From Clostridia bacterium (GTDB lineage Bacteria > Bacillota > Clostridia > Christensenellales > CAG-917): a DNA stretch of 64,000 bases. A program made the position numbers and the translations under genes. Below the pieces are notes generated by a model that worked only from the letters and a program-made list of their open reading frames with translations, ran no database searches and was not told the DNA's origin. Positions within the stretch are counted from its first letter, which is position 1. Every line of letters begins with the position of its first letter. Below, one piece after another: positions 21,033-52,753 of this stretch. The stretch spans positions 180,964 through 244,963 of the forward strand of contig JAFZMH010000008.1 in the NCBI GenBank assembly GCA_017553325.1, read 5' to 3'.

Positions 21033-22961
21033 ATGCCGGGACCAAGAGGAAATGCGGCAATTCAAAAAGGCAAAGGTTTCCGCGCGGCAAGTCCGATGAA
21101 GACCTTCAAACGTATTCTCACCTATCTCAAACCGTTTAGAGTCAGGCTGATTTTTGCCGTGCTCGCGATGATTGCAAACGTCGTCACGAACATAGCGGGG
21201 ACGTTTATGCTGTCCATCGCCATAAACGACTACATTTTGCCGCTCTTCAAGCACGAGTACGTCAGTTTCGGCGCGCTCACGGGCATAGCGGCGCTCGGCG
21301 GTTTTGTCGCGGTTATGGCGAGCATATATCTGTTCGGCGCGTTTTTGCAATATATTTCGCACTACGTCATAATCGGCGCGACGACGAAAGTGCTTGAAAA
21401 CGTCCGCAACGAGATGTTCGAAAAGATGGAAAAACTGCCCATCAAATACTTCGATACGCACACGCACGGCGACATTATGAGCCTTTACACCAACGACACG
21501 GACACTTTGCGCGAACTTCTGTCCAACGGTTTGCCCAACCTCATCACCAACGCGTGCACGATATTGGGTATGTTTATTGCGATGCTCATTTTGTCTCCGC
21601 TCCTTACGCTCGTCTCCGTTGCGATGCTTGCAATCATGCTTCTCATCACAAAGACGATAGCGGGCAAGAGCGGGAAGCACTTTGTGCTTCAACAGCGTCA
21701 AGTCGGTGCGCTCAACGGGTTTATAGAGGAGCACATGGACGGGCTGAAAGTCGTCAAAGTGTTCTGCCACGAGCAAGAGGAAAAAGCGGACTTTGACAGC
21801 CACAATCAAACGCTCCGCGGAGCGTCCAAAAAGGCGCACACCTACGCGAACGTACTCATGCCGATTATGGGCAATCTTTCCTACGTCTCTTATGCGATAA
21901 CGGCAATCGTGGGCACGATACTCACGATAAACGGTTTCGGCGGTATGAACTGGGGCAAACTCGTGTCCTTTATGCAATACTCCCGTCAATTTTCCAACCC
22001 GCTCTCGCAGATTGCGCAGCAGATGAACGGAATTTTGATGGCGCTTGCAGGTGCGGAACGTATCTTTGAACTCATAGACCAAGAACCCGAACAGGACGAA
22101 GGCTACGTCAAACTCGTCAACGCGAGAGAGGACGAAGACGGCAATATGATAGAGTGCGAAGAATACACGGGTATGTGGGCGTGGAAACACTACCACAAAG
22201 CCACGGACACGACCACTTTCGTCAAGTGGCGCGGGGAAGTGGAGTTTGAAAACGTATCCTTTGGATACGATCCGGAAAAGACCGTGCTCAAAAACGTCAC
22301 GTTTGAGGCAAAGCCGGGACAAAAGTTTGCTCTCGTCGGCTCCACGGGCGCAGGCAAGACCACGATTACAAACCTCATAAACCGATTCTACGATATAAAC
22401 GAAGGCAAGATACGCTATGACGACATCAACATCACCAAGATAAACAAGCAGGATCTCCGCCACTCTATGGCGATGGTGCTTCAAGACACACACCTGTTTA
22501 CGGGCACGGTCAGAGACAATATCCGCTTTGGCAAACTTGACGCTACGGACGAAGAAGTGGAGAACGCAGCAAAACTCACAAACGCGGACTATTTTATCCG
22601 CCACTTGCCGGACGGCTACGACACTATGCTCACGGGCGACGGCACCAACCTCTCGCAAGGTCAACGTCAGCTCCTCGCAATCGCAAGGGCGGCTGTTGCA
22701 AACCCGCCTGTGCTCGTTTTGGACGAGGCAACCAGCTCGATCGACACTCGCACCGAGAAACTCATCGAGCAGGGCATGGATGGGCTTATGAAGGGCAGAA
22801 CGGTGTTTGTCATCGCTCACCGTCTCTCCACAGTCCGTAACGCCGACGTGATCCTCGTGCTTGAACATGGCGAGATCATCGAACGCGGTAACCACGATGA
22901 GTTGATTGCCCTCAAGGGTAAGTATTATCAGCTTTATACTGGTGCTTTCGAACTCGACTAA
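21033..22961 (+). CDS. ABC exporter permease/ATPase, consensus-site subunit
   Basis: The Walker A is GSTGAGKT, the Walker B is VLVLDEATSSID, and the signature is deviant (LSQGQRQ). It starts 1 nt after the upstream stop. Confidence 0.9.
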   Translation: MPGPRGNAAIQKGKGFRAASPMKTFKRILTYLKPFRVRLIFAVLAMIANVVTNIAGTFMLSIAINDYILPLFKHEYVSFGALTGIAALGGFVAVMASIYLFGAFLQYISHYVIIGATTKVLENVRNEMFEKMEKLPIKYFDTHTHGDIMSLYTNDTDTLRELLSNGLPNLITNACTILGMFIAMLILSPLLTLVSVAMLAIMLLITKTIAGKSGKHFVLQQRQVGALNGFIEEHMDGLKVVKVFCHEQEEKADFDSHNQTLRGASKKAHTYANVLMPIMGNLSYVSYAITAIVGTILTINGFGGMNWGKLVSFMQYSRQFSNPLSQIAQQMNGILMALAGAERIFELIDQEPEQDEGYVKLVNAREDEDGNMIECEEYTGMWAWKHYHKATDTTTFVKWRGEVEFENVSFGYDPEKTVLKNVTFEAKPGQKFALVGSTGAGKTTITNLINRFYDINEGKIRYDDINITKINKQDLRHSMAMVLQDTHLFTGTVRDNIRFGKLDATDEEVENAAKLTNADYFIRHLPDGYDTMLTGDGTNLSQGQRQLLAIARAAVANPPVLVLDEATSSIDTRTEKLIEQGMDGLMKGRTVFVIAHRLSTVRNADVILVLEHGEIIERGNHDELIALKGKYYQLYTGAFELD

Positions 22962-23082
22962 ACCGCGCTATTTGGCGACCTGCTTTGTCATGTTTGCGTG
23001 CACTCGCACACCGTGTACGCTCTTGTACACTGGGTGGCTCGCGTGCGCACCTTTCGCGCATCTCATCCAAATAATCGCGGTT
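22961..23082 (+). repeat. Stop-codon-anchored palindromic element, copy A
   Basis: AACCGCGCTATTTGG | CGACCTGCTTTGTCA (box1) | imperfect hairpin with apex GTGTACgctcttGTACAC | TTTCGCGCATCTCATC (box2) | CCAAATAATCGCGGTT. It is flanked by TA (22959-60) and TA (23083-84). Its first A completes the TAA stop. Confidence 0.8.
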
Positions 23083-23115
23083 TAGCAAACTGTAGTTGAT
23101 ATGGAATAAAAAAAT

Positions 23116-23143
23116 AAAACCTTCGCATTTGCGAAGGTTTTTT
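23116..23143. terminator. Bidirectional terminator (ABC exporter / C-protein gene)
   Basis: AAAACCTTCGC-attt-GCGAAGGTTTTTT. Confidence 0.85.
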
Positions 23144-23439: not shown

Positions 23440-24123
23440 ATGCCAATTTCTACAAAAGGTCAAAATCCAAACAATAAATATAAGGCTAATTTCAAAAACA
23501 AGGCAGATGGTCTTGACCTTTTAAGGCATATTGATGACAAGTCAATAAAGGTTGTTTTTTTTGATCCTCAATATAGAGGGGTTCTTGATAAACTTAAGTA
23601 TGGGAATGAAGGTGTTAGTCGAGGAAAGGGAAGAGCAGAGCTTACACAAATGAGCTTTGAGACTATACATGAATTCTTGTTTGAAATACAAAGAGTTTTA
23701 GTGCCCAATGGTTATTTGTTTTTGTGGGTTGATAAGTTCCATTTGGTTGAAGGTGTAAAGCAATGGTTTGCTGATTTGAACGAGTTAGACACCGTTGATA
23801 TGATAACCTGGAACAAAAAAAGAATGGGAATGGGTTATAGGACAAGGAGAATTAGCGAGTATCTTGTTGTTGTTCAAAAACAACCTCGGCTTGCAAAATC
23901 TACTTGGTCAATACACAATATTCCAGATGTTTGGGACGAAGAAGTAAAAAAAATACATCCGCATACAAAACCTATTAAACTGCAGGCAAAACTAATTTCT
24001 GCGACAACAGAAGCAGGTGATTTTGTTTGTGATCCAGCAGCGGGTGGATATTCAGTTCTTGAAGCATGTAAGTATACAAACAGAAATTTTATTGGTGGAG
24101 ATATTGAATTTGGGGAGGAATAA
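23440..24123 (+). CDS. DNA methyltransferase, beta-class N6A/N4C type (type II R-M)
   Basis: Motif IV DPQY (aa 42-45) precedes HPHTKPIKL and motif I FVCDPAAGGYSVLEA. This order is typical of the N4/N6 (PF01555-like) family. Confidence 0.88.
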   Translation: MPISTKGQNPNNKYKANFKNKADGLDLLRHIDDKSIKVVFFDPQYRGVLDKLKYGNEGVSRGKGRAELTQMSFETIHEFLFEIQRVLVPNGYLFLWVDKFHLVEGVKQWFADLNELDTVDMITWNKKRMGMGYRTRRISEYLVVVQKQPRLAKSTWSIHNIPDVWDEEVKKIHPHTKPIKLQAKLISATTEAGDFVCDPAAGGYSVLEACKYTNRNFIGGDIEFGEE

Positions 24124-24125
24124 CA

Positions 24126-24821
24126 ATGGCGAAAATTGCTAATGCACGTGGGCGTAGTGATGGTGGTTCAGGATATACGCGTGTACTGAAAAATGATGAA
24201 CTTGGTGTTTTGGTCAGTCGCGTTCAAGCAACCGTTATTTCTAATGGCAATGAACTCGAACGATTAATTTTAGAACGCACAAATAATATTGATAATTTGG
24301 ACAATTTTATTGATGAAACAATTGACGCAAAAACGGTCGACGGTGTTTATTTGTGCCCCAAAAGAGTATATGCAAAATCAAGATACTTGATTTACGATAA
24401 CCAAAACAATAAAATCGAACCTGATTTACTTATATTTATAGTTGAACAACGAAGAATTTGCAAGGTTGTTGAACTTAAAGATGGCGATGCTTTTGATACT
24501 AAAAAATCGGCAGGAGAAAAGCAACATTTGGAAGAGTTTGTTTTAAAATTTGGCTCTCAAATACCGTTTGTTGCAGAATACTATATATGCTGTTTTAATC
24601 AAACTGATAAAAACATTATTTTTACTGGCTTTAAAGGAGCATTTGATATGGCTCACATTTTGACTGGTAGAGATTTGTGCAATATATTAAGAATTAACTA
24701 TGATGAGATAGTTGAAAAAAGAAAGGCTGACGCAGAAGACAATTTTGAATACTTTTTGAACCAACTTATTGCAATTGATGAAGTCAATAATTATTTAAAG
24801 AATAAATTAAAGGCTGTTTAA
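24126..24821 (+). CDS. Putative type II restriction endonuclease (PD-(D/E)xK)
   Basis: It starts 2 nt after the methylase stop, with a GGAGG SD. IEPDLLIFIVEQRRICKVVELKDG gives a PD...ELK catalytic motif. I cannot recall a family match. Confidence 0.6.
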   Translation: MAKIANARGRSDGGSGYTRVLKNDELGVLVSRVQATVISNGNELERLILERTNNIDNLDNFIDETIDAKTVDGVYLCPKRVYAKSRYLIYDNQNNKIEPDLLIFIVEQRRICKVVELKDGDAFDTKKSAGEKQHLEEFVLKFGSQIPFVAEYYICCFNQTDKNIIFTGFKGAFDMAHILTGRDLCNILRINYDEIVEKRKADAEDNFEYFLNQLIAIDEVNNYLKNKLKAV

Positions 24822-24824
24822 TTT

Positions 24825-24954
24825 ATTTAACGCTTTGATTTAGATGAGATGCGCGAAAACAAAATAAATCACCCCGCCCAATGTACTAAAACGTACATGA
24901 CGGGGTGCATTTTTTGTAGTTGACAAAGCAGGTCGCTAAATCAAAGCGTTAAAT
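24825..24954 (-). repeat. Stop-codon-anchored palindromic element, copy B (reverse orientation, belongs to the trkH 3' end)
   Basis: Has a perfect 19-bp outer repeat, ATTTAACGCTTTGATTTAG / CTAAATCAAAGCGTTAAAT. Box1 (24921-35) and box2 (24843-58) are identical to copy A. The inner hairpin CACCCCGCCCAATGTACtaaaacGTACATGACGGGGTG is followed by T-runs on both strands. Confidence 0.8.
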
Positions 24955-26477
24955 CACGCCTTTTTCCAAGACTTATAGTAGAACAGCATAAGGATAGGTA
25001 TAATCTCAAGTCTGCCGATAAGCATATCGAACATAAGGACGATTTTTTCCAGTATGCCGTAGTTTGCAAAGTTGCCGAGTGGGCCGACTGCGCCGATGCC
25101 GGGACCTATGTTGTTGAGGCAGGAGATGACGGCGGAGAGGTTGGTGGCGATGCCCTCTGCGTTCTTGTACGGGGAGAGGATGGCGAGGATGAGCGTCGAG
25201 AATATCAAGATGAGGATGTAGATGATAAAGAAGTTTTGAATTTCCTCGACGGTTGAGTCAGGCAGAGCCTTGCCGTCCATTTTGACCGTTTGAACCGAGC
25301 GCGGAGAGTTGAGTTTGCGCACGTGGTTGATGGACGATTTGGTGAGGATGATGGCTCTTGACATCTTCATACCGCCTGCCGTTGAACCTGCCGAACCGCC
25401 TATGCACATGATGAGGAGCATCATGACCTGAATTATCGTCGGCCAAGCGGCAAAGTTGCCGAGTTCGCCAGTGCCGTAGCCCGTTGTGCTCATCATACTT
25501 GCGACGTTGAAGGTGGTGTGTCTGACCGCCTCGGCAAACGTGTAGGTGTGTACGGTGCCGTCCTCAAGCACTATGGACGTATGGCTGCCCATAAGTATTG
25601 CGACGATAGTCGCACACGCACCGATATAGAGCCCGATAAGACAGAACAATTCCTCATTTTTGAGGGACTTGAAGTGCCCGATGAGTATCATATAATAGAG
25701 GTTGAAGTTGACGGAGAAGAGAAGCATAAACACGGTGATTACAACTTCGATGCTGACCGAGTTGTATGCGCCTATGCTTGAACCCATAACCGAGAACCCG
25801 CCTGTCGATGCGGTTGAAAACGCGTGGCAGAAACTGTCAAACACCGGCATCCCACAGATGCAGAGTATTGCGACCAAGATGAGGGTGAGCACGATGTACA
25901 TCGCGTAGAGAATTTGCGACGTGAAGCGAAGTTTGCCCACAAGTTTACCAAATTGATAGCCGGGAATCTCCGCTTTTGCAAGCGCGGTGGACGCCTTGTC
26001 GTTTTTCGGCAAAACCGCAATGACGAACACGAGCACGCCCATACCGCCTATCCACTGTGTGAGCGCACGCCAGAAGAGGAGAGATTTCGACATATCAAAA
26101 TAGCCGTCAGGTCTCACCCGCGTCAAAATGCTCGAGCCTGTGGTTGTAAAGCCGGAAATCGTCTCAAATAGCGCGTCGATATAGTGGGGGATCGCTCCCG
26201 AAATACGGAATGGGATCGCGCCGATAAGTCCAAGCAATATCCACGCAAGTCCGCACATAACGAAACCGCTTTGAGGTCGGAGATTGCGTTTGTCCTTTGG
26301 CGGGCGCACGATAACGCCGACCGCGCCGAGTACGACTGCGATTGCGATTGCGATGCCAAAGGCGAGTATTGTTTTGTCCTCGTGATAGCCAAGCGCCATA
26401 AACATCGGGATGCACATGAGCGCGCCGACGATAAGCAAGATTTCTCCGAGAACGTATGCTGTCAGTCTATAATTCAT
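24954..26477 (-). CDS. trkH: Trk/Ktr-type potassium uptake protein, membrane subunit
   Basis: A 507-aa polytopic protein with TrkH-type repeated pore motifs (TTTGSS, STGGFS, TTGYGTG, GSTAGG). Confidence 0.9.
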   Translation of the reverse strand: MNYRLTAYVLGEILLIVGALMCIPMFMALGYHEDKTILAFGIAIAIAVVLGAVGVIVRPPKDKRNLRPQSGFVMCGLAWILLGLIGAIPFRISGAIPHYIDALFETISGFTTTGSSILTRVRPDGYFDMSKSLLFWRALTQWIGGMGVLVFVIAVLPKNDKASTALAKAEIPGYQFGKLVGKLRFTSQILYAMYIVLTLILVAILCICGMPVFDSFCHAFSTASTGGFSVMGSSIGAYNSVSIEVVITVFMLLFSVNFNLYYMILIGHFKSLKNEELFCLIGLYIGACATIVAILMGSHTSIVLEDGTVHTYTFAEAVRHTTFNVASMMSTTGYGTGELGNFAAWPTIIQVMMLLIMCIGGSAGSTAGGMKMSRAIILTKSSINHVRKLNSPRSVQTVKMDGKALPDSTVEEIQNFFIIYILILIFSTLILAILSPYKNAEGIATNLSAVISCLNNIGPGIGAVGPLGNFANYGILEKIVLMFDMLIGRLEIIPILMLFYYKSWKKA

Positions 26478-28162: not shown

Positions 28163-29053
28163 ATGCTACTTGATTTGCTTGATGAAGAGGCAAACGAAGT
28201 CGCGGCGGAAGCGGCGGAGACTCCAACCGCTCAAAACTTTTTTGAAGCGTTTTTGGAGGATGTGAGAGCGTTCTTTACGAGAGCGGGGCTCAATATCGTA
28301 ATCGGACTTCTCATAATCATTGTCGGTCTTATAATCTGCAAGATTATAAAGGTCGTCATCACGCGCATTATGCGCAGGACCAAAAAGGACGAGGCAGTCG
28401 TCCACTTTGTCGCGTCACTGGTTGACATAGTGTTGAAGGTCTGCGTGCTCGTCGCGGCGCTTGCAACGATGGGCGTCAATACTGCGTCGATAATCACAGT
28501 GCTCGGCACTTGCGGTGTTGCAATCGGTCTCGCGCTCAAAGACAGCCTTGGCAACGTTGCGGGCGGGATGATGATAATTGTCAACAAGCCTTTCAAAAAG
28601 GGCGATTATATCAGCGGCGCAGGGCAAGAGGGTATTGTGCAGACAATCAACCTTTTCAACACCGTGCTTCTGTCGCTCGACAACAAGGAAATCGTCATTC
28701 CAAACGGCTTGCTCTCAAATTCAAATATTGTCAACTTCTCGGCAATGCCAACTCGTAGAGTTGACATAGATGTCAATGTCGCGGTGGACACCGACCTTGT
28801 CAAGGCGCAAAACGCAATCTTGTCCGTCTGCGGTGCGCACGCCAAGGTTCACAGCGACCCGGAGCCATTCTGCCGTATGAACAGGGTGGAAAACGGCGCA
28901 ATCATCATCACCATCCGTGCATGGTGTGATACATCAGAATATTGGGGAGTCTATTTTGACCTTCAAGAGCAAATCCGCGAGAAATTTATTCAACTCGGAA
29001 TTGTTGTGCCGTATCCGCAACTCGAAATTCACGTTGAAAACCGCACGGATTGA
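28163..29053 (+). CDS. mscS: Small-conductance mechanosensitive channel (MscS family)
   Basis: TM helices are followed by LKDSLGNVAGGMMIIVNKPFKKGDYI..G.V..I.L..T, a typical MscS beta-domain. Confidence 0.88.
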   Translation: MLLDLLDEEANEVAAEAAETPTAQNFFEAFLEDVRAFFTRAGLNIVIGLLIIIVGLIICKIIKVVITRIMRRTKKDEAVVHFVASLVDIVLKVCVLVAALATMGVNTASIITVLGTCGVAIGLALKDSLGNVAGGMMIIVNKPFKKGDYISGAGQEGIVQTINLFNTVLLSLDNKEIVIPNGLLSNSNIVNFSAMPTRRVDIDVNVAVDTDLVKAQNAILSVCGAHAKVHSDPEPFCRMNRVENGAIIITIRAWCDTSEYWGVYFDLQEQIREKFIQLGIVVPYPQLEIHVENRTD

Positions 29054-29161
29054 GCGACTTGCGGTGTCAGAGGCACTTTTGCCGTCGGTTGCGTACGTCT
29101 TTGTACGCGCGCTCCGTCAAAAACACCTCTTCCTTGCATCTCATCTCAACCGCACGGTTTT
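29037..29161 (+). repeat. Stop-codon-anchored palindromic element, copy C
   Basis: AAAACCGCACGGATTGAG | CGACTTGCGGTGTCAG | ..GCGTACgtctttGTACGC.. | CTTCCTTGCATCTCAT | CTCAACCGCACGGTTTT. The left arm covers the last 14 coding nt of mscS (29037-29050) and its TGA (29051-53). Confidence 0.7.
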
Positions 29162-29212
29162 GAGTCACTTATTTTGAGCAGTTGTGAAATTCTATTATAA
29201 AAAAGGTAAATT

Positions 29213-40995: not shown

Positions 40996-41196
40996 AAAAA
41001 AACCGCGCTTGCAATAGCACGGAAACAATACACGAAAAATGCAAATCCTACCATTACAAGCTTTAGCATCATCGGGCGATGAAATTGCGTTAGACGACGC
41101 CTTGGTTTCGACGTCACCTGCTAACCGCGCGGTAATGTGTCTCCACATTATTGTCGGTAGCAATCCGTATCCCGATGGTAGCCTCACCTACCGGAG
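40996..41196 (-). promoter_or_regulatory. M-box (ykoK leader) Mg2+ riboswitch with terminator
   Basis: The minus strand reads GGUAGGUGAGGCUACC..GGGAUACGG..UGCUACCGA..GGAGACA..GGUUAGCAGGUGA..GCUAAAGCU..GGUAGG, followed by the hairpin CCGUGC-N8-GCGCGG-UUUUUUU (40996-41022). Confidence 0.85.
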
Positions 41197-41341
41197 ATTT
41201 AAACTACTGTTATCTTATGCCAATTTTTTTTTCGTGTCAACGATTTGAAGACATTTGTTTGATATTTTTTCAAAAAGTTTTTTTGCCGTTTATTATAAAT
41301 AATAAAGTTATGCTTTACAAGTTTTGCGCATACAATTTGTT

Positions 41342-44001: not shown

Positions 44002-44585
44002 TGAAATATATTGAACCACTTGCCCGCCTGATTGGGCAACTCACCAAACTTCCGTCCGTCGGCGAAAAGACGGCGGCAAGATATGCCTATGCGATTCTCA
44101 ATGCACCCGACGAGGATGCGGAAGAACTCATAGCGGCAATCAAGGACGTCAAAGAGAACGTCCACTTTTGCAGTGTGTGCGGCAACTACACGGAGGACGA
44201 CGTCTGCGAGATATGCAAGACGCGCGAGCAAAAAGTCATCTGCGTTGTCAAAGAGCCGCGAGACATCGTCGCGCTCGAAAAGGTCAAGGACTTCAAGGGC
44301 GTATATCACGTGCTCGGCGGAGTTATCTCTCCAATGGAACACGTCGGCCCCAACGACATTAGAATAAAGGAACTTCTTGCCCGTCTCGACGGAGTGGAGG
44401 AGGTCATCCTTGCCACCAACCCCGACGTGGAAGGCGAAGCAACCGCAATGTATATCGCTCGTCTCATCAAACCGCTCGGCATCAAAGTCACGCGTATTGC
44501 CCGCGGACTCCCCGAAGGCTCAGTCATTGAGTATGCCGACGAAAGCACATTATCAAGGGCTATGTCTTCACGAATCACACTGTAA
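44001..44585 (+). CDS. recR: Recombination protein RecR
   Basis: LPSVGEKTAARYA (HhH), a C4 zinc finger (CSVCGNYTEDDVCEIC) and a Toprim domain are present. It shows TAATG overlap with ybaB. Confidence 0.95.
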   Translation: MKYIEPLARLIGQLTKLPSVGEKTAARYAYAILNAPDEDAEELIAAIKDVKENVHFCSVCGNYTEDDVCEICKTREQKVICVVKEPRDIVALEKVKDFKGVYHVLGGVISPMEHVGPNDIRIKELLARLDGVEEVILATNPDVEGEATAMYIARLIKPLGIKVTRIARGLPEGSVIEYADESTLSRAMSSRITL

Positions 44586-44775
44586 AACCGCACTATTTGG
44601 CGAATAGCATTGTCAAAGCCCGTTTGCTCGGGGGTCTTGCGTTTCACGCATCGTCCACATCGTTGTTTACAGTCCTTGCAAGCAAGTTGTAAACGCCTCG
44701 TGGTCACGTACGCTCAAGTACGCTCCTCCGTCACAAACGGGCTTCTTCGCGCTCTTCATCCAAATATTGCGGTTT
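44585..44775 (+). repeat. Stop-codon-anchored palindromic element, copy D (long variant)
   Basis: AAACCGCACTATTTGG | CGAATAGCATTGTCAA | nested hairpins including CGTACgctcaaGTACG | CTTCGCGCTCTTCAT | CCAAATATTGCGGTTT. It is flanked by TA/TA. Complementarity continues outward (44573-82 versus 44778-87). Confidence 0.8.
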
Positions 44776-44798
44776 TACAGTGTGATTGAACAAACGCC

Positions 44799-44818
44799 CT
44801 TTCTTGCATCTCATCTCA
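44799..44818 (+). repeat. Isolated box2 fragment of the same repeat family
   Basis: CTTGCATCTCATCTCA (44803-18) is identical to 29133-48 in copy C. No partner box1 or outer repeat was found. Confidence 0.55.
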
Positions 44819-44877
44819 CTCACGCACTTATATCACTATGTGTTTTTTATTATTATTCTTATTTAAACTAATCAATA

Positions 44878-45080: not shown

Positions 45081-48000
45081 ATGAAAACAAAACGCACTAT
45101 TCTATTTGTCATCGTAATAATTTTGACGATTGCGCTTTTGACGTGTGTTCTCACAGCCTGCGATTTATTTAAGTCAAGAGACAACGAGAATAACAACAAT
45201 GACGGCACAGTTATAGGCAACACTGGGGGCGACCAAGGCGGTGACTCCAATATAAATCTTGATGACAACCAAGGTGGAGATAATCAGGGAGGCAACAGCC
45301 AAGGCGGAGGCTCCAATATTAATCCAGATGACAGCCAAGGAGGGGGTCAAGGCAATCAAAACCAAACCAACGTAAACGATGACGCTTTGAACAAATTTGT
45401 CGGTTTGGCTGTTCAGTCAATCCAATCTTCAGAAAGCAAATCTGACGAGATTAATATAGGAGACAATAGTTATGTCGTTTCAGTTCGCGTAGTTGACTCA
45501 GTGAGTGCTTCTGATTTTGATAGTCAATTATCTTCTACAGAAAGCGGTTATAACGGCGGAATATATGTAGGCGAAGATTGCGATATCAATTTGGAAGACG
45601 TTACACAAATGAATTTTGGCGACGTATTGTATGTCGCAATAAACGTTGGAGACCAAGTGTATGTTTGCGAAGTTGTTGTGTATGAAGAAGCAACCGTGGA
45701 TGAAAACCATGAACACTCTTACGGAGATTGGGTTGTTGTGAAAGAGCCAAGCTGCTTGGGACAAGGCACTCGCAGAAGGGTTTGCCCAATTTGCGGAGAA
45801 GTTGAAACTGAAAACATAAACGCACTCGGGCATGATTTGGATGAAAACAACGTTTGCAGACGTTGTGGAGAAGAAGAGATTAGAGTTGAAGGGCTCACGT
45901 TTGAACTGCTTGAAAACGATACATACTCAATAATAGCATATAGCGGAAGTGAAGCGGAACTTGTCTTGCCGGATTCATATCTTGGCAAACCAGTGACAAG
46001 CATAGGTGGTAGCGCATTCCGTGGTTGCGCGGGGGTGACATCCGTCACCATCACAGACAGTGTGACAAGTATAGGAAACGGTGCATTCAAAGGTTGTTCA
46101 TCACTTGTCAGCATAACAATCCCATTTGTTGGTGCAAAAGTAGGGAAAACAAGCAGTGACACCTATCAATATCCATTTGGTTATATCTTTGGCACAAGCA
46201 GTTATACGGGAGGAACAGCGGTATCACAAACATATTATGGTTCAAGTACATCAAGTACAACCAGCACAACATACTACATTCCATCATCACTCCGCAGTGT
46301 TACAGTGACAGGTGGCAACATATTGCGTGGTGCATTTTATGGTTGTTCAATGCTTAAGTCCGTCACCATCCCCGACGGTGTGACAAGCATAGGTAATTAT
46401 GCATTCAATAATTGCAGTGGTTTGACATCCATCACAATCCCCGACGGCGTGACAAGCATAGGTGATGATGCATTCCGAGATTGTACCGGCTTGACGTCCG
46501 TCACCATTCCGGACAGTGTGACAAGCATAGGCGAGTATGCATTCTATGGATGCACCGGTTTAACTTCCGTCACCATTGGCAACGGTGTGACAGGTATAGG
46601 CTATCAGGCATTCTCCGGGTGCACCAGTTTGACATCCATCACAATCCCGGACAGTGTGACAAGCATAAGCATGGGTGTATTCAATGGATGCACTGGTTTG
46701 ACGACAATCAATTATACAGGGGATATAATAGATTGGTGTGCAATGAGCCGCTCATCCAGTTTATTGTCATCTTCAAGAACATTGTATATAAATGGTGAGG
46801 CTTTGACAGGCGATTTGGTTATTCCAAGTGGTGTTGCAACAATACCTAAATATGCATTCTCTATTTGTACCGGATTGACATCCGTCACAATTCCCGACAG
46901 TGTGACAAGCATAGACGGTGAGGCATTCTATGGATGCACCGGTTTAACTTCCGTCACCATTGGCAACGGTGTGACAAGCATAGGCGGTTCTGCATTCAGT
47001 GGATGCACCGGTTTGACATCTGTCACTATCCCAGACAGCGTGATAGGTATAGGCTATCAGGCATTCTATGGATGCACAGGTTTGACATCCGTCATCATTG
47101 GTAATGGCGTGACAAGCATAGGTGCTGATGCATTCTCAGGTTGTACCGGTTTGACTTTCATAACTATTCCTAACAGTGTGACAAGTATAGGTGAGCGTGC
47201 ATTTTCTGGGTGCTCATCACTTGAAAGCATAACCATTCCATTTGTTGGTGGATCTGCAACAGCAACATCTGCAAGCGGTTCAACTTTGTTTGGCTATATA
47301 TTTGGCACAACCAGTTATACCGGTGGGACAGCAGTAACGCAACTCTATTACGATTCATATGCATTATTAGGCATAAACGAAACCTACTATATTCCGACCA
47401 CGCTTCGCAACGTGACGGTGACAGGTGGCAATATACTGTATGGAGCATTCTCTGGATGCACCGGTTTGACATCCATCACGATTCCCGATAGTGTGACAAG
47501 CATAGGAAATTATACATTTGATGGCTGCACCGGTTTGACATCCGTCACAATCCCAAACAGCGTGACAAGCATAGGCATGTATGCATTCAAAGGATGCAGA
47601 GGTTTGACGTCAGTCACCATTGGCAACGGCGTGACAAGCATAGGCTATTATGCATTCGATGGCTGCACCGGTTTGACATCTATCACTATTCCAAACAGCG
47701 TGACAATCATAGGCGATCGAGCATTCTATGGATGCAATAGTTTGACATCCGTCACCATTGGCGACAGCGTGACAAGTATAGGCTATGCTGCATTCTCCGG
47801 ATGCACCGGTTTGACATCCATAATAATTCCAAACAGTGTGACAAGCATAGGTGGGTATGCATTTGCTGGATGCAGCAGTTTGACGTCTATCACTATTGGC
47901 AATGGTGTGACAAGTATAGGCTATGATGCATTCTCTGGATGCACCGGTTTGACATCCGTCACGTTTGAAGAAAACAGCCAATTGATAAGCATAGGCGATC

Positions 48001-49376
48001 GAGCATTCCGTGGCTGCACTAATTTGACGCATATCACAATTCCAAACAGTGTGACAAGCATAGGTGCTGATGCATTCTCTGGATGCACCAGTTTGACATC
48101 TATCACTATTCCAAACAGTGTGACAAGTATAGGTAAATATGCATTCCGAGGTTGCACCGGATTGACATCTATCACCATCGGCAACGGCATGACAAACATA
48201 TGGGATTATACATTTGATGGATGCACCGGTTTGACGTCCGTTACATTTGAAGAAAACAGCCAATTGATAAGCATAGGCGATTATGCATTCCGTGGCTGCA
48301 CTAATTTGACGCATATCACAATCCCGAACAGTGTGACAAGCATAGGACGTAGTGCATTCTCCGGATGCACCGGTTTGACATCCATAATAATTCCAAACAG
48401 TGTGACAAGCATCAGTTTTTCTGCATTCAATGGATGCACCGGTTTGACATCCATAATAATTCCAAACAGTGTGACAAGTATAGGTGAGGGTGCATTTTCT
48501 GGGTGCTCATCACTTGAAAGCATAACCATTCCATTTGTTGGTGAATATGCAACAGCAACGTCTGAAATCAGTTCAACTTTGACTTTGTTTGGCTATATAT
48601 TTGGTAGAAACAGTTATCAAGGGGGAGCTGCAACACAACAGAAATATTATTCTTCTTCAGGCGGTTCATCAGACACATACTACATTCCAGCCACGCTTCG
48701 CAGCGTGACGGTGACGGGTGGAAACATCTTGTATGGGGCATTTTATAACTGTTCAATGCTTACGTCCATCACAATTCCTGACAGTGTGACAAGCATAGGC
48801 TATTATGCATTCCGAGGTTGCACCGGATTGACGTCCGTTACATTTGAAGAAAACAGCCAATTGACAAGCATAGGCGATTATGCTTTCTACAACTGCACCA
48901 GCCTGACATCAATCACCATTCCGGATAGCGTGACAAGCATAGGCAATCGGGCATTCTATGGATGCGGTTTGACGTCCGTCACAATCCCCGACAGTGTGAC
49001 AAGCATAGTTGATTATGCATTCTATGGCTGCACTGGCTTGACATCCATCACCATCCCGGACAGTGTGACAAGCATAGGGAATTATGCATTCTCTGGTTGC
49101 ACTGGTTTGACGTCCGTCACTATTCCAAACAGTGTGACAAGCATAGGAAACTATACATTTGATGGATGCAGTAGTTTGACATCCATCACTATTGGCAATG
49201 GTGTGACAAGCATAGGCTATTATGCATTCGATGGCTGCATCGGTTTGACAGATATCAATTTCAATGGAACGATAGAACATTGGAATGCAATTTCAAAAGG
49301 TTATTGTTGGAACGATCAAACAGGCAATTACACTATTCATTGCACGGACGGAGATATCGCAAAATCAAAATCATAA
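45081..49376 (+). CDS. BspA-like leucine-rich-repeat (LRR_5-type) surface lipoprotein, 1431 aa
   Basis: The lipobox is VLTAC. A G/Q/N/D-rich linker follows, then a CxxC..CxxC segment. About 45 units of the type LTSVTIPDSVTSIGxxAFxGCxG follow. The C-terminal cap reads INFNGTIEHWNAI. Confidence 0.9.
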   Translation: MKTKRTILFVIVIILTIALLTCVLTACDLFKSRDNENNNNDGTVIGNTGGDQGGDSNINLDDNQGGDNQGGNSQGGGSNINPDDSQGGGQGNQNQTNVNDDALNKFVGLAVQSIQSSESKSDEINIGDNSYVVSVRVVDSVSASDFDSQLSSTESGYNGGIYVGEDCDINLEDVTQMNFGDVLYVAINVGDQVYVCEVVVYEEATVDENHEHSYGDWVVVKEPSCLGQGTRRRVCPICGEVETENINALGHDLDENNVCRRCGEEEIRVEGLTFELLENDTYSIIAYSGSEAELVLPDSYLGKPVTSIGGSAFRGCAGVTSVTITDSVTSIGNGAFKGCSSLVSITIPFVGAKVGKTSSDTYQYPFGYIFGTSSYTGGTAVSQTYYGSSTSSTTSTTYYIPSSLRSVTVTGGNILRGAFYGCSMLKSVTIPDGVTSIGNYAFNNCSGLTSITIPDGVTSIGDDAFRDCTGLTSVTIPDSVTSIGEYAFYGCTGLTSVTIGNGVTGIGYQAFSGCTSLTSITIPDSVTSISMGVFNGCTGLTTINYTGDIIDWCAMSRSSSLLSSSRTLYINGEALTGDLVIPSGVATIPKYAFSICTGLTSVTIPDSVTSIDGEAFYGCTGLTSVTIGNGVTSIGGSAFSGCTGLTSVTIPDSVIGIGYQAFYGCTGLTSVIIGNGVTSIGADAFSGCTGLTFITIPNSVTSIGERAFSGCSSLESITIPFVGGSATATSASGSTLFGYIFGTTSYTGGTAVTQLYYDSYALLGINETYYIPTTLRNVTVTGGNILYGAFSGCTGLTSITIPDSVTSIGNYTFDGCTGLTSVTIPNSVTSIGMYAFKGCRGLTSVTIGNGVTSIGYYAFDGCTGLTSITIPNSVTIIGDRAFYGCNSLTSVTIGDSVTSIGYAAFSGCTGLTSIIIPNSVTSIGGYAFAGCSSLTSITIGNGVTSIGYDAFSGCTGLTSVTFEENSQLISIGDRAFRGCTNLTHITIPNSVTSIGADAFSGCTSLTSITIPNSVTSIGKYAFRGCTGLTSITIGNGMTNIWDYTFDGCTGLTSVTFEENSQLISIGDYAFRGCTNLTHITIPNSVTSIGRSAFSGCTGLTSIIIPNSVTSISFSAFNGCTGLTSIIIPNSVTSIGEGAFSGCSSLESITIPFVGEYATATSEISSTLTLFGYIFGRNSYQGGAATQQKYYSSSGGSSDTYYIPATLRSVTVTGGNILYGAFYNCSMLTSITIPDSVTSIGYYAFRGCTGLTSVTFEENSQLTSIGDYAFYNCTSLTSITIPDSVTSIGNRAFYGCGLTSVTIPDSVTSIVDYAFYGCTGLTSITIPDSVTSIGNYAFSGCTGLTSVTIPNSVTSIGNYTFDGCSSLTSITIGNGVTSIGYYAFDGCIGLTDINFNGTIEHWNAISKGYCWNDQTGNYTIHCTDGDIAKSKS

Positions 49377-51325: not shown

Positions 51326-52582
51326 ATGGCAACTGATAAAGAAAAATTCTTTGAAAATAATTTGGCTTTCGAAAGAATGTGCGACGACGTATACGGTATG
51401 CCGTCTTCCGTGCAGAAGCCCAGATTTTTGGAACTTCTTGAAATGCACGAGGAGATATTCGGCACTGACGAGGTGAATTTTTATTCCTCTCCCGGCCGCA
51501 TTGAGATCGTCGGCAACCACACCGACCACAACGGCGGAAAGGTGCTGTGCGCGGCAATCAATTTCGACACTCTCGCCAGCGTTTCACCCCGCAAAGACGG
51601 TATAATCGAAGTCAAGTCAAAGGGTTATCCAATGCTCAGAGTCGACACGTCGAAAGTCAACTTTATGGCAAGCGAAATCGGCACGTCAACCGCGCTCATC
51701 AAGGGCGTCGTGGACTACTTCCTTCACACGAACAAGAAAGTCGGCGGGTTTTCCGCTTGTATGACTTCGTCTGTGCCAAAGGGAAGCGGCGTTTCGTCTT
51801 CAAGTTCTTTTGAACTTGTCATTGCCGAAATCTTGAACGTTCTTTACAACGACGAGGCGCTTGACGCAATCTACAAAGCCAAGGCCTCCCAATATGCCGA
51901 AAACACCTTCTTCGGCAAGCCCTGCGGACTAATGGACCAAAGCGCAATCGCACTCGGCGGAGTCAACCTCATCGACTTTGCCGATTTTGAAAACCCTGTT
52001 GTCGAGCGCGCGAACTGGGCTTTTAAAGACCTCGATATCTACGTCATCGCGACGGGCGGAGACCACTCCAACCTCACGGACGACTATGCGGCAATTCCAT
52101 ACGAGATGAAAGAGGTCGCAACTTTGTTCGGCGTAAAACTCTTGCACGAAATTCCGCGTGAAAAGTGGGAGGACGAAAAGTATTTCATAAAGGACAAGGT
52201 CAGCGAAAGGGCGTATCTCAGAGCCGAGCACTTCTTCGAGGAGAACACGCGCGTCGAAGACGCTGTCAAGGCAATCGACAACCGCGACGAACGCGCCTTC
52301 CTCGACATAGTCAACGAGTCGGGACTCAGTTCGAGATACAAACTTCAAAACACGTATTCGCCGGCAGGCAAAAACAAGAACCTCGAAAACGCGCTCGACA
52401 GAGTCGTCAAAATAGACGGCGTCGTAGCAAGCCGTGTTCACGGCGGCGGTTTTGCCGGCACGATACTCGTCTTCGCAAGAAAAAACGCATTCGGCGTGAA
52501 TGCAGCTCTCAACGTGATGTTTGGCGAACACAACGTGTTCAAAATGGCGATACGTCCTTGCGGCGCCGTCAAATTGTTCTAA
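51326..52582 (+). CDS. galK: Galactokinase (GHMP kinase)
   Basis: GRIEIVGNHTDHNGG matches the galactokinase signature. PKGSGVSSSSSFE is the GHMP motif. GGGGG lies upstream. Confidence 0.92.
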   Translation: MATDKEKFFENNLAFERMCDDVYGMPSSVQKPRFLELLEMHEEIFGTDEVNFYSSPGRIEIVGNHTDHNGGKVLCAAINFDTLASVSPRKDGIIEVKSKGYPMLRVDTSKVNFMASEIGTSTALIKGVVDYFLHTNKKVGGFSACMTSSVPKGSGVSSSSSFELVIAEILNVLYNDEALDAIYKAKASQYAENTFFGKPCGLMDQSAIALGGVNLIDFADFENPVVERANWAFKDLDIYVIATGGDHSNLTDDYAAIPYEMKEVATLFGVKLLHEIPREKWEDEKYFIKDKVSERAYLRAEHFFEENTRVEDAVKAIDNRDERAFLDIVNESGLSSRYKLQNTYSPAGKNKNLENALDRVVKIDGVVASRVHGGGFAGTILVFARKNAFGVNAALNVMFGEHNVFKMAIRPCGAVKLF

Positions 52583-52702
52583 ATCGCGCTATTGGGCGAA
52601 TAGCCGTGTCAACGCGCTTTGCCTTGTCAACCGTGTACGCCTATGTCACCGGGGTGTCAATTCGAAGCACGTTTCCTTGCTCTTCATCCCAATATCTCGA
52701 TT
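52582..52702 (+). repeat. Stop-codon-anchored palindromic element, copy E
   Basis: AATCGCGCTATTGGG | CGAATAGCCGTGTCAA | ..GTGTACgcctatGTCAC.. | TTCCTTGCTCTTCAT | CCCAATATCTCGATT. It is flanked by TA (52580-81) and TA (52703-04). Its first A completes the galK TAA. Confidence 0.75.
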
Positions 52703-52753
52703 TATAAACGATTTTCATAATAATCAAAAAAAAACCTTTTTGAGGATAAGTAT

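Follow-up and report, generated by a model that had tools for sequence, protein, structure and literature searches.

Several kinds of palindromic repeat are known from the spaces between bacterial genes. The REP/BIME sequences of Proteobacteria, and the REPINs found with REP-associated tyrosine transposases (RAYTs), are abundant non-coding intergenic palindromes at gene 3′ ends, built of units of 20–40 nt with a conserved 5′ tetranucleotide and arranged as inverted doublets. The Neisseria Correia/NEMIS, enterobacterial ERIC/IRU and pneumococcal RUP/BOX families are miniature inverted-repeat transposable elements (MITEs) that form long hairpins in transcripts; they have conserved terminal inverted repeats and direct duplications of TA (or other) targets, and they occur in both orientations. 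Integron attC sites are hairpins conserved in structure but not in stem sequence, with asymmetric unpaired bases; in a fixed orientation, they directly follow the upstream ORF and often take in its stop codon. Here we describe a family of hairpin elements in a 64,000-nt stretch of DNA from a Clostridia bacterium of the order Christensenellales (GenBank assembly GCA_017553325.1, contig JAFZMH010000008.1, positions 180,964 to 244,963; part of a metagenome scaffold), hereafter the window. The element behaves most like REP/REPIN sequences and hairpin MITEs such as Correia and ERIC, but it departs from REPs in size and doublet organization, from MITEs in target duplication and terminal repeats, and from attC sites in core sites and cassette context.

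A first-pass annotation of the window had listed five palindromic elements and one fragment, each with an outer inverted repeat, two short conserved boxes and a long inner hairpin. Inspection of the sequence, a pattern count and a covariance model built from 78 copies of the family all bear out these positions and this layout. The window holds five full copies, namely A (22959–23084, + strand), B (24825–24956, −), C (29036–29162, +), D (44573–44787, +) and E (52580–52704, +), and one 3′ remnant (~44795–44830, +), or about one copy per 13 kb. The box1 pattern GCGANNNGCNNTGTCA has five matches, all within elements, where 0.03 are expected from shuffles, and the covariance model finds exactly the five copies, its other matches in the window being ordinary small terminator hairpins. 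Four of the five score 88–100 bits; D, which is split by an insert, scores 26.4 bits. Copies A, B, C and E, for which folds were compared with shuffles (D was excluded), each form one long hairpin, with z-scores of −2.8 to −8.2. As had been annotated, box1 (CGACCTGCTTTGTCA) and box2 (TTTCGCGCATCTCATC) are identical between A and B, and the apex reads GTAC-N6-GTAC in copies A to D, that of E being degenerate (GTGTAC..GTCAC). Pfam confirmed the named upstream genes: ABC exporter (A), TrkH (B), MscS (C), RecR (D) and GalK (E).

Each element is a single hairpin of 125–145 bp. From the base upward, a site-specific arm of 9–14 bp is followed by a one-base mismatch, by a short stem in which ATTNNG pairs with CNNAAT and whose two N pairs covary, and by a 1×2 loop (C opposite AT). 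Box1 (GCGAnnnGCnnTGTCA) then faces box2 (TTCnnnGCnnnTCATC), and together they make up two conserved internal loops, in the order GA/TC, 2×2 loop, NGC/GCN and conserved internal loop (nnTGTC opposite TCCnn). Above the boxes stands a fully variable stem of ~20 bp, topped by a conserved apical YGTAC-N5-6-GTACR hairpin. The core measures ~100 nt. In both phyla in which the family was found, all copies span 94–99 nt over the matched pattern, which runs from ATT through TCATC. We computed pairing and covariation statistics on an alignment of 78 sequences, with slid partners and 500 shuffles as controls. Paired cells make up 92.2% of the alignment, as opposed to 36–46% with slid partners; double compensatory changes are found at 27 of 36 pairs; there are 634 double-changed cells versus 88–171 in the slid controls; and the covariation score is 0.557, a value that none of the 500 shuffles attains, the slid controls reaching at most 0.164. 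The proposal that the stems co-vary is thus upheld, with abundant compensatory changes beyond the copies of the window. The boxes, which had been described as unpaired, are not simply so: they lie opposite one another and give rise to conserved internal loops as well as short helices. This test of pairing constraint cannot tell selection on RNA from templating at the DNA level.

The distribution of the family was followed in two samples. GTDB species representatives were scanned once with a 24-base split pattern, giving 74 loci of at most 22 kb around each match (~0.52 Mb in total), and in these the covariance model found ~95 further copies, direct tandem pairs included. Most carriers are metagenome-assembled genomes (MAGs) labelled Christensenella sp., Clostridia or Clostridiales. 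A slightly shorter subfamily lies on six contigs from five MAGs of the Patescibacteria (candidate phyla radiation, CPR), belonging to Uhrbacteria, Paceibacterota and Saccharibacteria, with one labelled only ‘bacterium’. The second sample consisted of 80 metagenome loci fetched through the ABC exporter gene, blind to the element. Among these, copies were present in all relatives at 75–82% protein identity, while 0.80 Mb from relatives at 54–58% identity contained none; the family is thus clade-restricted and patchy.

Database searches agree with the annotation in that the family corresponds to no named repeat or RNA family. At the gathering threshold, Rfam 15 recognized in the whole window only an M-box riboswitch, a tetrahydrofolate (THF) riboswitch and two tRNAs, and a permissive Rfam search with copy A and a copy from another locus (L044) returned chance matches of 7–21 bits against cut-offs of 40–125. 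There was no blastn match among the PLSDB plasmids, and full-text literature searching found no description of the family. A relaxed pattern gave 52 matches on viral contigs, which is about the chance level, and none of them fit the covariance model, so we rejected a phage-borne element. Several likenesses seen by eye were also discarded: motif order and spacing are wrong for a hammerhead (GAUGA...GAAA) and for loop A of the hairpin ribozyme (GUC), as they are for K-turn or C/D motifs on the antisense strand, where C/D-box matches reach only 7–10 bits. What emerges is an undescribed family of hairpin-forming, non-coding, intergenic elements.

The element is anchored at the stop codon of an upstream gene on its own strand, and its box1 side faces that gene. 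Among 92 copies examined, 66 have a long open reading frame (ORF, 60 codons or more) that terminates within the box1-side arm; the corresponding count for the box2 side is 12, mostly short ORFs, and 8.6% of random positions have a long-ORF stop. The stop mostly falls 9–14 nt before the ATT that opens the core. In a few copies the ORF passes through the arm to a TGA within ATTGAG, as does mscS in the window, and many of the copies that lack an anchored stop stand behind another copy in a tandem array. All 61 copies in the metagenome loci fetched through the exporter gene lie on the strand of the gene. The stop-codon anchoring reported for the five copies of the window therefore holds well beyond it, and the copies in other genomes are random neither in position nor in orientation. 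We considered replication as the source of the orientation. Local GC skew, taken in the orientation of the element over 8 kb and noisy at that scale, is −0.03 or lower at six copies; five of these, copy B included, follow a long upstream ORF on the same strand, and no ORF ends in the box1-side arm of the sixth (L019:4129). This suggests that orientation tracks the gene and not replication. The CPR copies obey the same stop-codon rule, lying behind gyrA and lysS, and other hosts there encode cysteine desulfurase-like (nifS-like) and thioredoxin-fold-like (dsbA-like) products, all of these names being read from translations. Two of the CPR copies, at L053 4849–4987 and L065 449–587, are orthologous and directly 3′ of gyrA in two different Patescibacteria MAGs, that is, the element has been kept at one site across CPR species.

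The outer arms bear on how the element is made. The TA...TA bracket seen around copies in the window had been taken as a possible target duplication. Its two halves are inverted rather than direct, being the ends of the inverted repeat (TAA/TTA), and in other genomes they are replaced by TGA/TCA (CTGA...TCAG). Comparison with orthologous empty sites, which had been proposed for this question, was possible in three cases (L058/L045, L019/L013 and L130/window) and revealed no single-TA target; the species compared are ~80% identical, and their intergenic DNA, like that of L031, is too diverged to define insertion points. Copies in the same genome with 98–99% identical cores may differ in their arms, each perfectly self-complementary. 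The copies of L035 and L041, for instance, have 99% identical cores with arms CCGCGCT/ATCGCGG and CCTTGTG/CACAAGG, respectively, and L045 and L012 likewise combine near-identical cores (98–99%) with different arms.

In some copies the right arm repeats the final codons of the host gene exactly, in inverted form. At the exporter site of a human-gut species, whose strains have near-identical flanks there, the right arm TTTGTTATTCCAACTCGA is, in five strains, the exact reverse complement of the gene end TCGAGTTGGAATAACAAA, and other forms of this site match their own synonymous codons (CGACTAA/TTAGTCG and CTTGAATAA/TTATTCAAG). In copy D the palindrome reaches 13 nt into recR, where AATCACACTGTAA (44573–44585) pairs with TTACAGTGTGATT (44775–44787). 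Extension of the stem into the coding flank with at least 7 of 12 matches occurs in 24% of copies versus 9% of permuted pairs; this enrichment over all copies is only modest and the very strong cases are few, and we did not retain a general inverted duplication of the coding flank. Of the nine variable outer-arm pairs, eight show 0–1 one-sided (wobble) changes each and the remaining one shows 5, as against 13–34 double changes per pair. Such a scarcity of wobble changes is not what stepwise compensation in RNA predicts, and the covariation of the element is better explained by templating at the DNA level. Template switching during replication has been reported to create and maintain hairpins and their ‘compensatory’ changes (PMC8794818).

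The content of occupied sites turns over. At the exporter site, strains of one species share identical outer arms and boxes and carry one of two unrelated inner stems, and one of these stems is identical to that of a copy 6.5 kb downstream in the same strain (L132), a swap between sites that is ectopic gene conversion. At a second site the tandem copy number is one or two, depending on the strain. At three places (the exporter site, the second site and window copy D) a complete copy abuts the stop codon and is followed by the 3′ end of an older one, and new copies had always been added on the gene-proximal side; the remnant at 44795–44830 is the leftover of an older copy displaced by D. Copies thus turn over by ectopic gene conversion, by tandem gain and loss, and by gene-proximal (5′-side) replacement.

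Sites themselves can be long-lived. The site orthologous to that of copy A is occupied in UBA1260 (L031), in RUG767 (L056) and in the human-gut species (L131–L156), and the exporter-gene site is occupied in every element-bearing relative, but the interiors are unrelated. In the closest relative (L130, 10207–10240) the exporter-site element is cut to its left arm and box1, after which comes unrelated sequence with a terminator-like hairpin of its own. Copy B and the methylase island that adjoins it are both missing in the two closest relatives (L031 and L130). This island (23440–24821) consists of a DNA methylase gene (PF01555) and an adjacent 231-aa ORF with no Pfam match; the pair resembles a small restriction-modification island and is flanked by copies A (+) and B (−). 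Copy C has an ortholog in L130 (15187–15331) with the same element-encoded C-terminus of mscS. In the window, the last five codons and the stop of mscS (…ENRTD*, 29036–29053) come from the left arm and core of the element, and in L130 (15187–15210) mscS also ends in NRTD*, the preceding codon being Asp. The C-terminus of mscS is element-derived and has been kept across species. At a cross-species empty site, the pgk gene that carries the element is two codons shorter and uses the element-associated TAA.

The two strands of the element do not fold equally well. The antisense strand folds ~8 kcal/mol better in 79 of 90 copies. Most of this advantage derives from invariant positions, namely a C.A that turns into U.G and a loop rich in purines; G.U and A.C occur about equally often in the variable stems. 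Read on the sense strand, 53 of 78 copies have G.U or U.G at one loop position (40/117). A run of at least four T ends 49 of 92 copies, with a matching A run as in bidirectional terminators, and 39 of 92 have at least five T in the 8-nt window after the right arm, the copies of the window having only T3–T4. No other terminator is predicted after copies B, C, D or E, which, together with the T runs, would fit a terminator-like role. A canonical terminator separate from copy A lies at 23116–23141, 34 nt downstream.

The family is non-coding and non-autonomous, with no target-site duplication and no transposase seen. The 50 ORF translations of the window that were scanned against Pfam are housekeeping proteins or have no match, with the island's DNA methylase as the one exception, and none belongs to a transposase, integrase or HUH-nuclease family. 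No RAYT gene was seen in the window, and no box1...box2 pair enclosing an ORF, as an autonomous parent would have, was found in the ~1.8 Mb scanned. We also dismissed an antisense small ORF running from the ATG in GATGA to the TAG in AATAG, as inspection showed that element lengths are not restricted to multiples of three, and an outward promoter with TTGACA of antisense box1, for which inspection showed no −10 at the right spacing.

Set against the described systems, the element shares with REP/REPIN sequences its persistence at orthologous sites while the content turns over and, by analogy, it might also share their co-transcription as stabilizing or terminating hairpins. Unlike REPs, it is one hairpin of full length rather than a short unit, with two conserved internal loops, a conserved apex, a fixed orientation and the stop codon inside its stem, and its arrays are direct tandems rather than inverted doublets. 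The Correia, ERIC and RUP families resemble it as imperfect palindromes of 100–150 bp, in tens to hundreds of copies per genome, that lie near or overlap stop codons, may change the C-terminus of the upstream protein and fold in mRNA. They differ from it in the features expected of a TA-duplicating MITE, since here neither a direct duplication nor conserved terminal inverted repeats are found, each site has arms of its own, copied in part from the host gene, and the orientation is nearly uniform. In contrast to attC sites, the arms (CTGACGCTCTC...GAGAGCGTCAG and ACTAAACC...GGTTTAG) do not, by inspection, fit RYYYAAC...GTTRRRY, and there is no integrase in the window, no attI and no cassette array; copies are 2–15 kb apart behind syntenic housekeeping genes (trkH, recR, galK, pgk, gyrA and lysS). 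About half of the copies look like intrinsic (bidirectional) terminators, with an A tract, a G+C-rich basal stem and a T tract in the expected place, but terminators lack a stem of ~55 bp with a conserved interior, and the other half of the copies lack the T tract. Quasipalindrome template-switch mutagenesis (for example PMC8794818) explains simultaneous two-sided changes and outward growth of stems into the flanks; being a mutational process, it leaves the invariant boxes, the dispersal to new genes and the orientation unexplained.

We hold with moderate confidence that the element is a new structured repeat, similar to REPs and MITEs, that is copied at the DNA level and transcribed as the 3′-terminal hairpin of the upstream mRNA. 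Under such a scheme, the long palindrome would stall or break replication, and repair or template switching would then copy cores from other copies. Intramolecular template switching would re-template the non-coding right arm from the constrained gene end, giving apparent ‘covariation’ in single steps, and the invariant boxes and fixed length would imply recognition by some protein. Selection would keep only the sense orientation, presumably because the element is transcribed as the 3′-terminal hairpin of the upstream mRNA, where it could protect the 3′ end or form a terminator-like barrier that the terminating ribosome opens at its base. Several observations weigh against this account. De novo arrival at a new gene end has no demonstrated mechanism, the empty-site junctions being too diverged; invariant boxes, constant length and occurrence in two phyla are more typical of a protein-recognized substrate or a functional RNA than of a passively copied palindrome; the model offers no cause at the DNA level for the orientation bias, which would have to be attributed to selection; and with an antisense strand that folds better by ~8 kcal/mol, it is not obvious that selection acts on the sense RNA. 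Termination cannot be the general function, as a separate terminator follows copy A and about half of the copies have no T tract. The genome loci cover only ~0.5 Mb, and an autonomous partner could lie elsewhere.

A rival reading is a dedicated cis-acting RNA element of the 3′ untranslated region, or a new ribozyme or protein-binding RNA, in which the conserved internal loops and apex would do the work, the basal stem would tie folding to translation termination by sequestering the stop codon, and multiplicity would reflect recruitment at many genes. The strict tie of orientation to the upstream gene, the narrow distance from stop to core (mostly 9–14 nt), the fixed span of 94–99 nt from box1 to box2, the invariant nucleotides in internal loops between stems that covary in two phyla, and the G.U or U.G at position 40/117 of the sense strand in 53 of 78 copies are all as such an RNA would have them. 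We nevertheless regard it as unlikely, given that the host genes are functionally unrelated, that the distribution is patchy, with 0 copies in 0.8 Mb from relatives at 54–58% identity, that copies are replaced, tandemly duplicated, truncated or lost between strains while the gene is kept, that wobble intermediates in the stems are few and the antisense folds better, and that Rfam holds no match. The same fixed geometry and orientation could instead reflect an enzyme acting on single-stranded DNA, such as a recombinase or nuclease of HUH/RAYT type, an integron-integrase-like protein or another hairpin-recognizing enzyme, which would read extrahelical or loop bases and insert the hairpin strand-specifically at gene ends. 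Asymmetric left and right boxes, stems conserved in structure and not in sequence, the lack of a direct target duplication and the consistently gene-proximal addition of new copies would all follow. No gene for such an enzyme was seen in the window or consistently beside the copies, though; the attC core sites RYYYAAC/GTTRRRY are missing and the neighbors of the copies are syntenic housekeeping genes, not cassettes; the element is 3–4 times the length of a REP; and conflicts between skew and gene are resolved with the gene and not with replication, which differs from what is known of IS200/IS605-type insertion. We consider this quite unlikely.

A classical MITE mobilized in trans by a TA-duplicating DDE transposase (IS630/Tc1-like, with CTAG/TA targets) is, in our view, highly improbable. 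The termini often read C-TA-A...T-TA-G (in copy A, CTAAACC...GGTTTAG), many near-identical copies occur in one genome and the size is typical of MITEs, but the flanking TAs are halves of an inverted palindrome that is elsewhere CTGA...TCAG without TA, arms differ among copies with 99% identical cores and some arms copy host coding sequence, the orientation is non-random, and neither a longer parent element (~1.8 Mb) nor a transposase (50 ORF translations of the window) was found. The DNA-copied, transcribed repeat remains our preferred reading. A bolder reading, which we put forward as speculation and think unlikely, is a mobile hairpin module whose ~100-nt core is placed, always in the sense orientation, precisely at stop codons and whose basal stem is an inverted copy, not a direct duplication, of the last codons of the host gene. 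The agent would be either transposase-independent, self-templating replication or an unrecognized hairpin-specific enzyme common to CPR and Clostridia, and the RNA hairpin would link the end of translation to what becomes of the mRNA at its 3′ end. The installation mechanism itself, an inverted copy of the target, may in that case be new, which we view as a minority possibility.

If the preferred reading is true, it adds an abundant structured repeat for the Christensenella-like Clostridia, a poorly studied, health-associated gut lineage, and for the CPR. It would also account for many covarying ‘conserved hairpins’ that might otherwise be mistaken for functional RNAs, and would offer a natural example of stems made and ‘compensated’ in single DNA-templated steps, some of them from coding sequence, which bears on how covariation evidence is read in RNA discovery. 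Because the elements rewrite C-termini and stop codons, as in mscS and pgk, they need to be reckoned with when genes are called in MAGs. Together, the invariant loops and the strict sense orientation at stop codons make a concrete, testable case for a protein partner or a function in 3′-end control.

The positions of the individual copies were refined, d being the distance in nucleotides between the first stop-codon base and the ATT at the start of the core. Copy A lies directly 3′ of the ABC exporter gene; its left arm TAAACCGCGCT (22959–22969) includes the TAA stop (22959–22961), and its core (22970–23072, d = 11) contains box1 (22975–22990), the apex GTGTAC-gctctt-GTACAC (23013–23030) and box2 (23052–23067), followed by the right arm AATCGCGGTTTA (23073–23084). 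It scores 91.2 bits and folds with −51 kcal/mol (z −3.6). On the minus strand, copy B follows the TGA stop of trkH (24954–24956, d = 15), with its core at 24838–24942 and its right arm at 24825–24837; it occupies the entire gap between the convergent trkH and the second gene of the methylase island (TAA 24819–24821), scores 99.4 bits and folds with −55.5 kcal/mol (z −8.2). The mscS ORF runs through the left arm GAAAACCGCACGG of copy C (core 29049–29150; 88.1 bits) to the TGA at 29051–29053 within the conserved ATTGAG. Copy D follows the TAA stop of recR (44583–44585, d = 12), and the inner stem of its core (44595–44765) bears an insert of ~70 nt (44636–44705) that contains a small hairpin and has no second copy in the window or the fetched loci. 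The 3′ remnant behind D retains a match to the box2 pattern, TTCTTGCATCTCATC (44801–44815), and a partial right arm. Copy E lies between galK and lgt, with its TAA stop at 52580–52582 (d = 11), its core at 52591–52693 and its right arm ATCTCGATTTA at 52694–52704; it scores 100.2 bits, with a fold z of −4.35.

Several MAGs labelled ‘BRZ’ Clostridia (L068 3450–4900; also L071, L072, L059, L061 and L014) harbor a second, unrelated repeat family, made of ~32-nt units (CACGTrnACTTATTCGGAG-like) in both orientations, which fills a 1.7-kb non-coding stretch downstream of the hairpin element. Within the window, the direct-repeat scan is dominated by the 69-nt periodic coding repeats of a gene at 45081–49376 for a 1431-aa BspA-type leucine-rich-repeat protein (PF13306, 11 stretches). 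The M-box riboswitch (41039–41202, −) lies upstream of mgtE, and the THF riboswitch (616–711, +) lies upstream of a Mur-ligase-family (folylpolyglutamate synthase-like) gene, both scoring above the Rfam gathering threshold.

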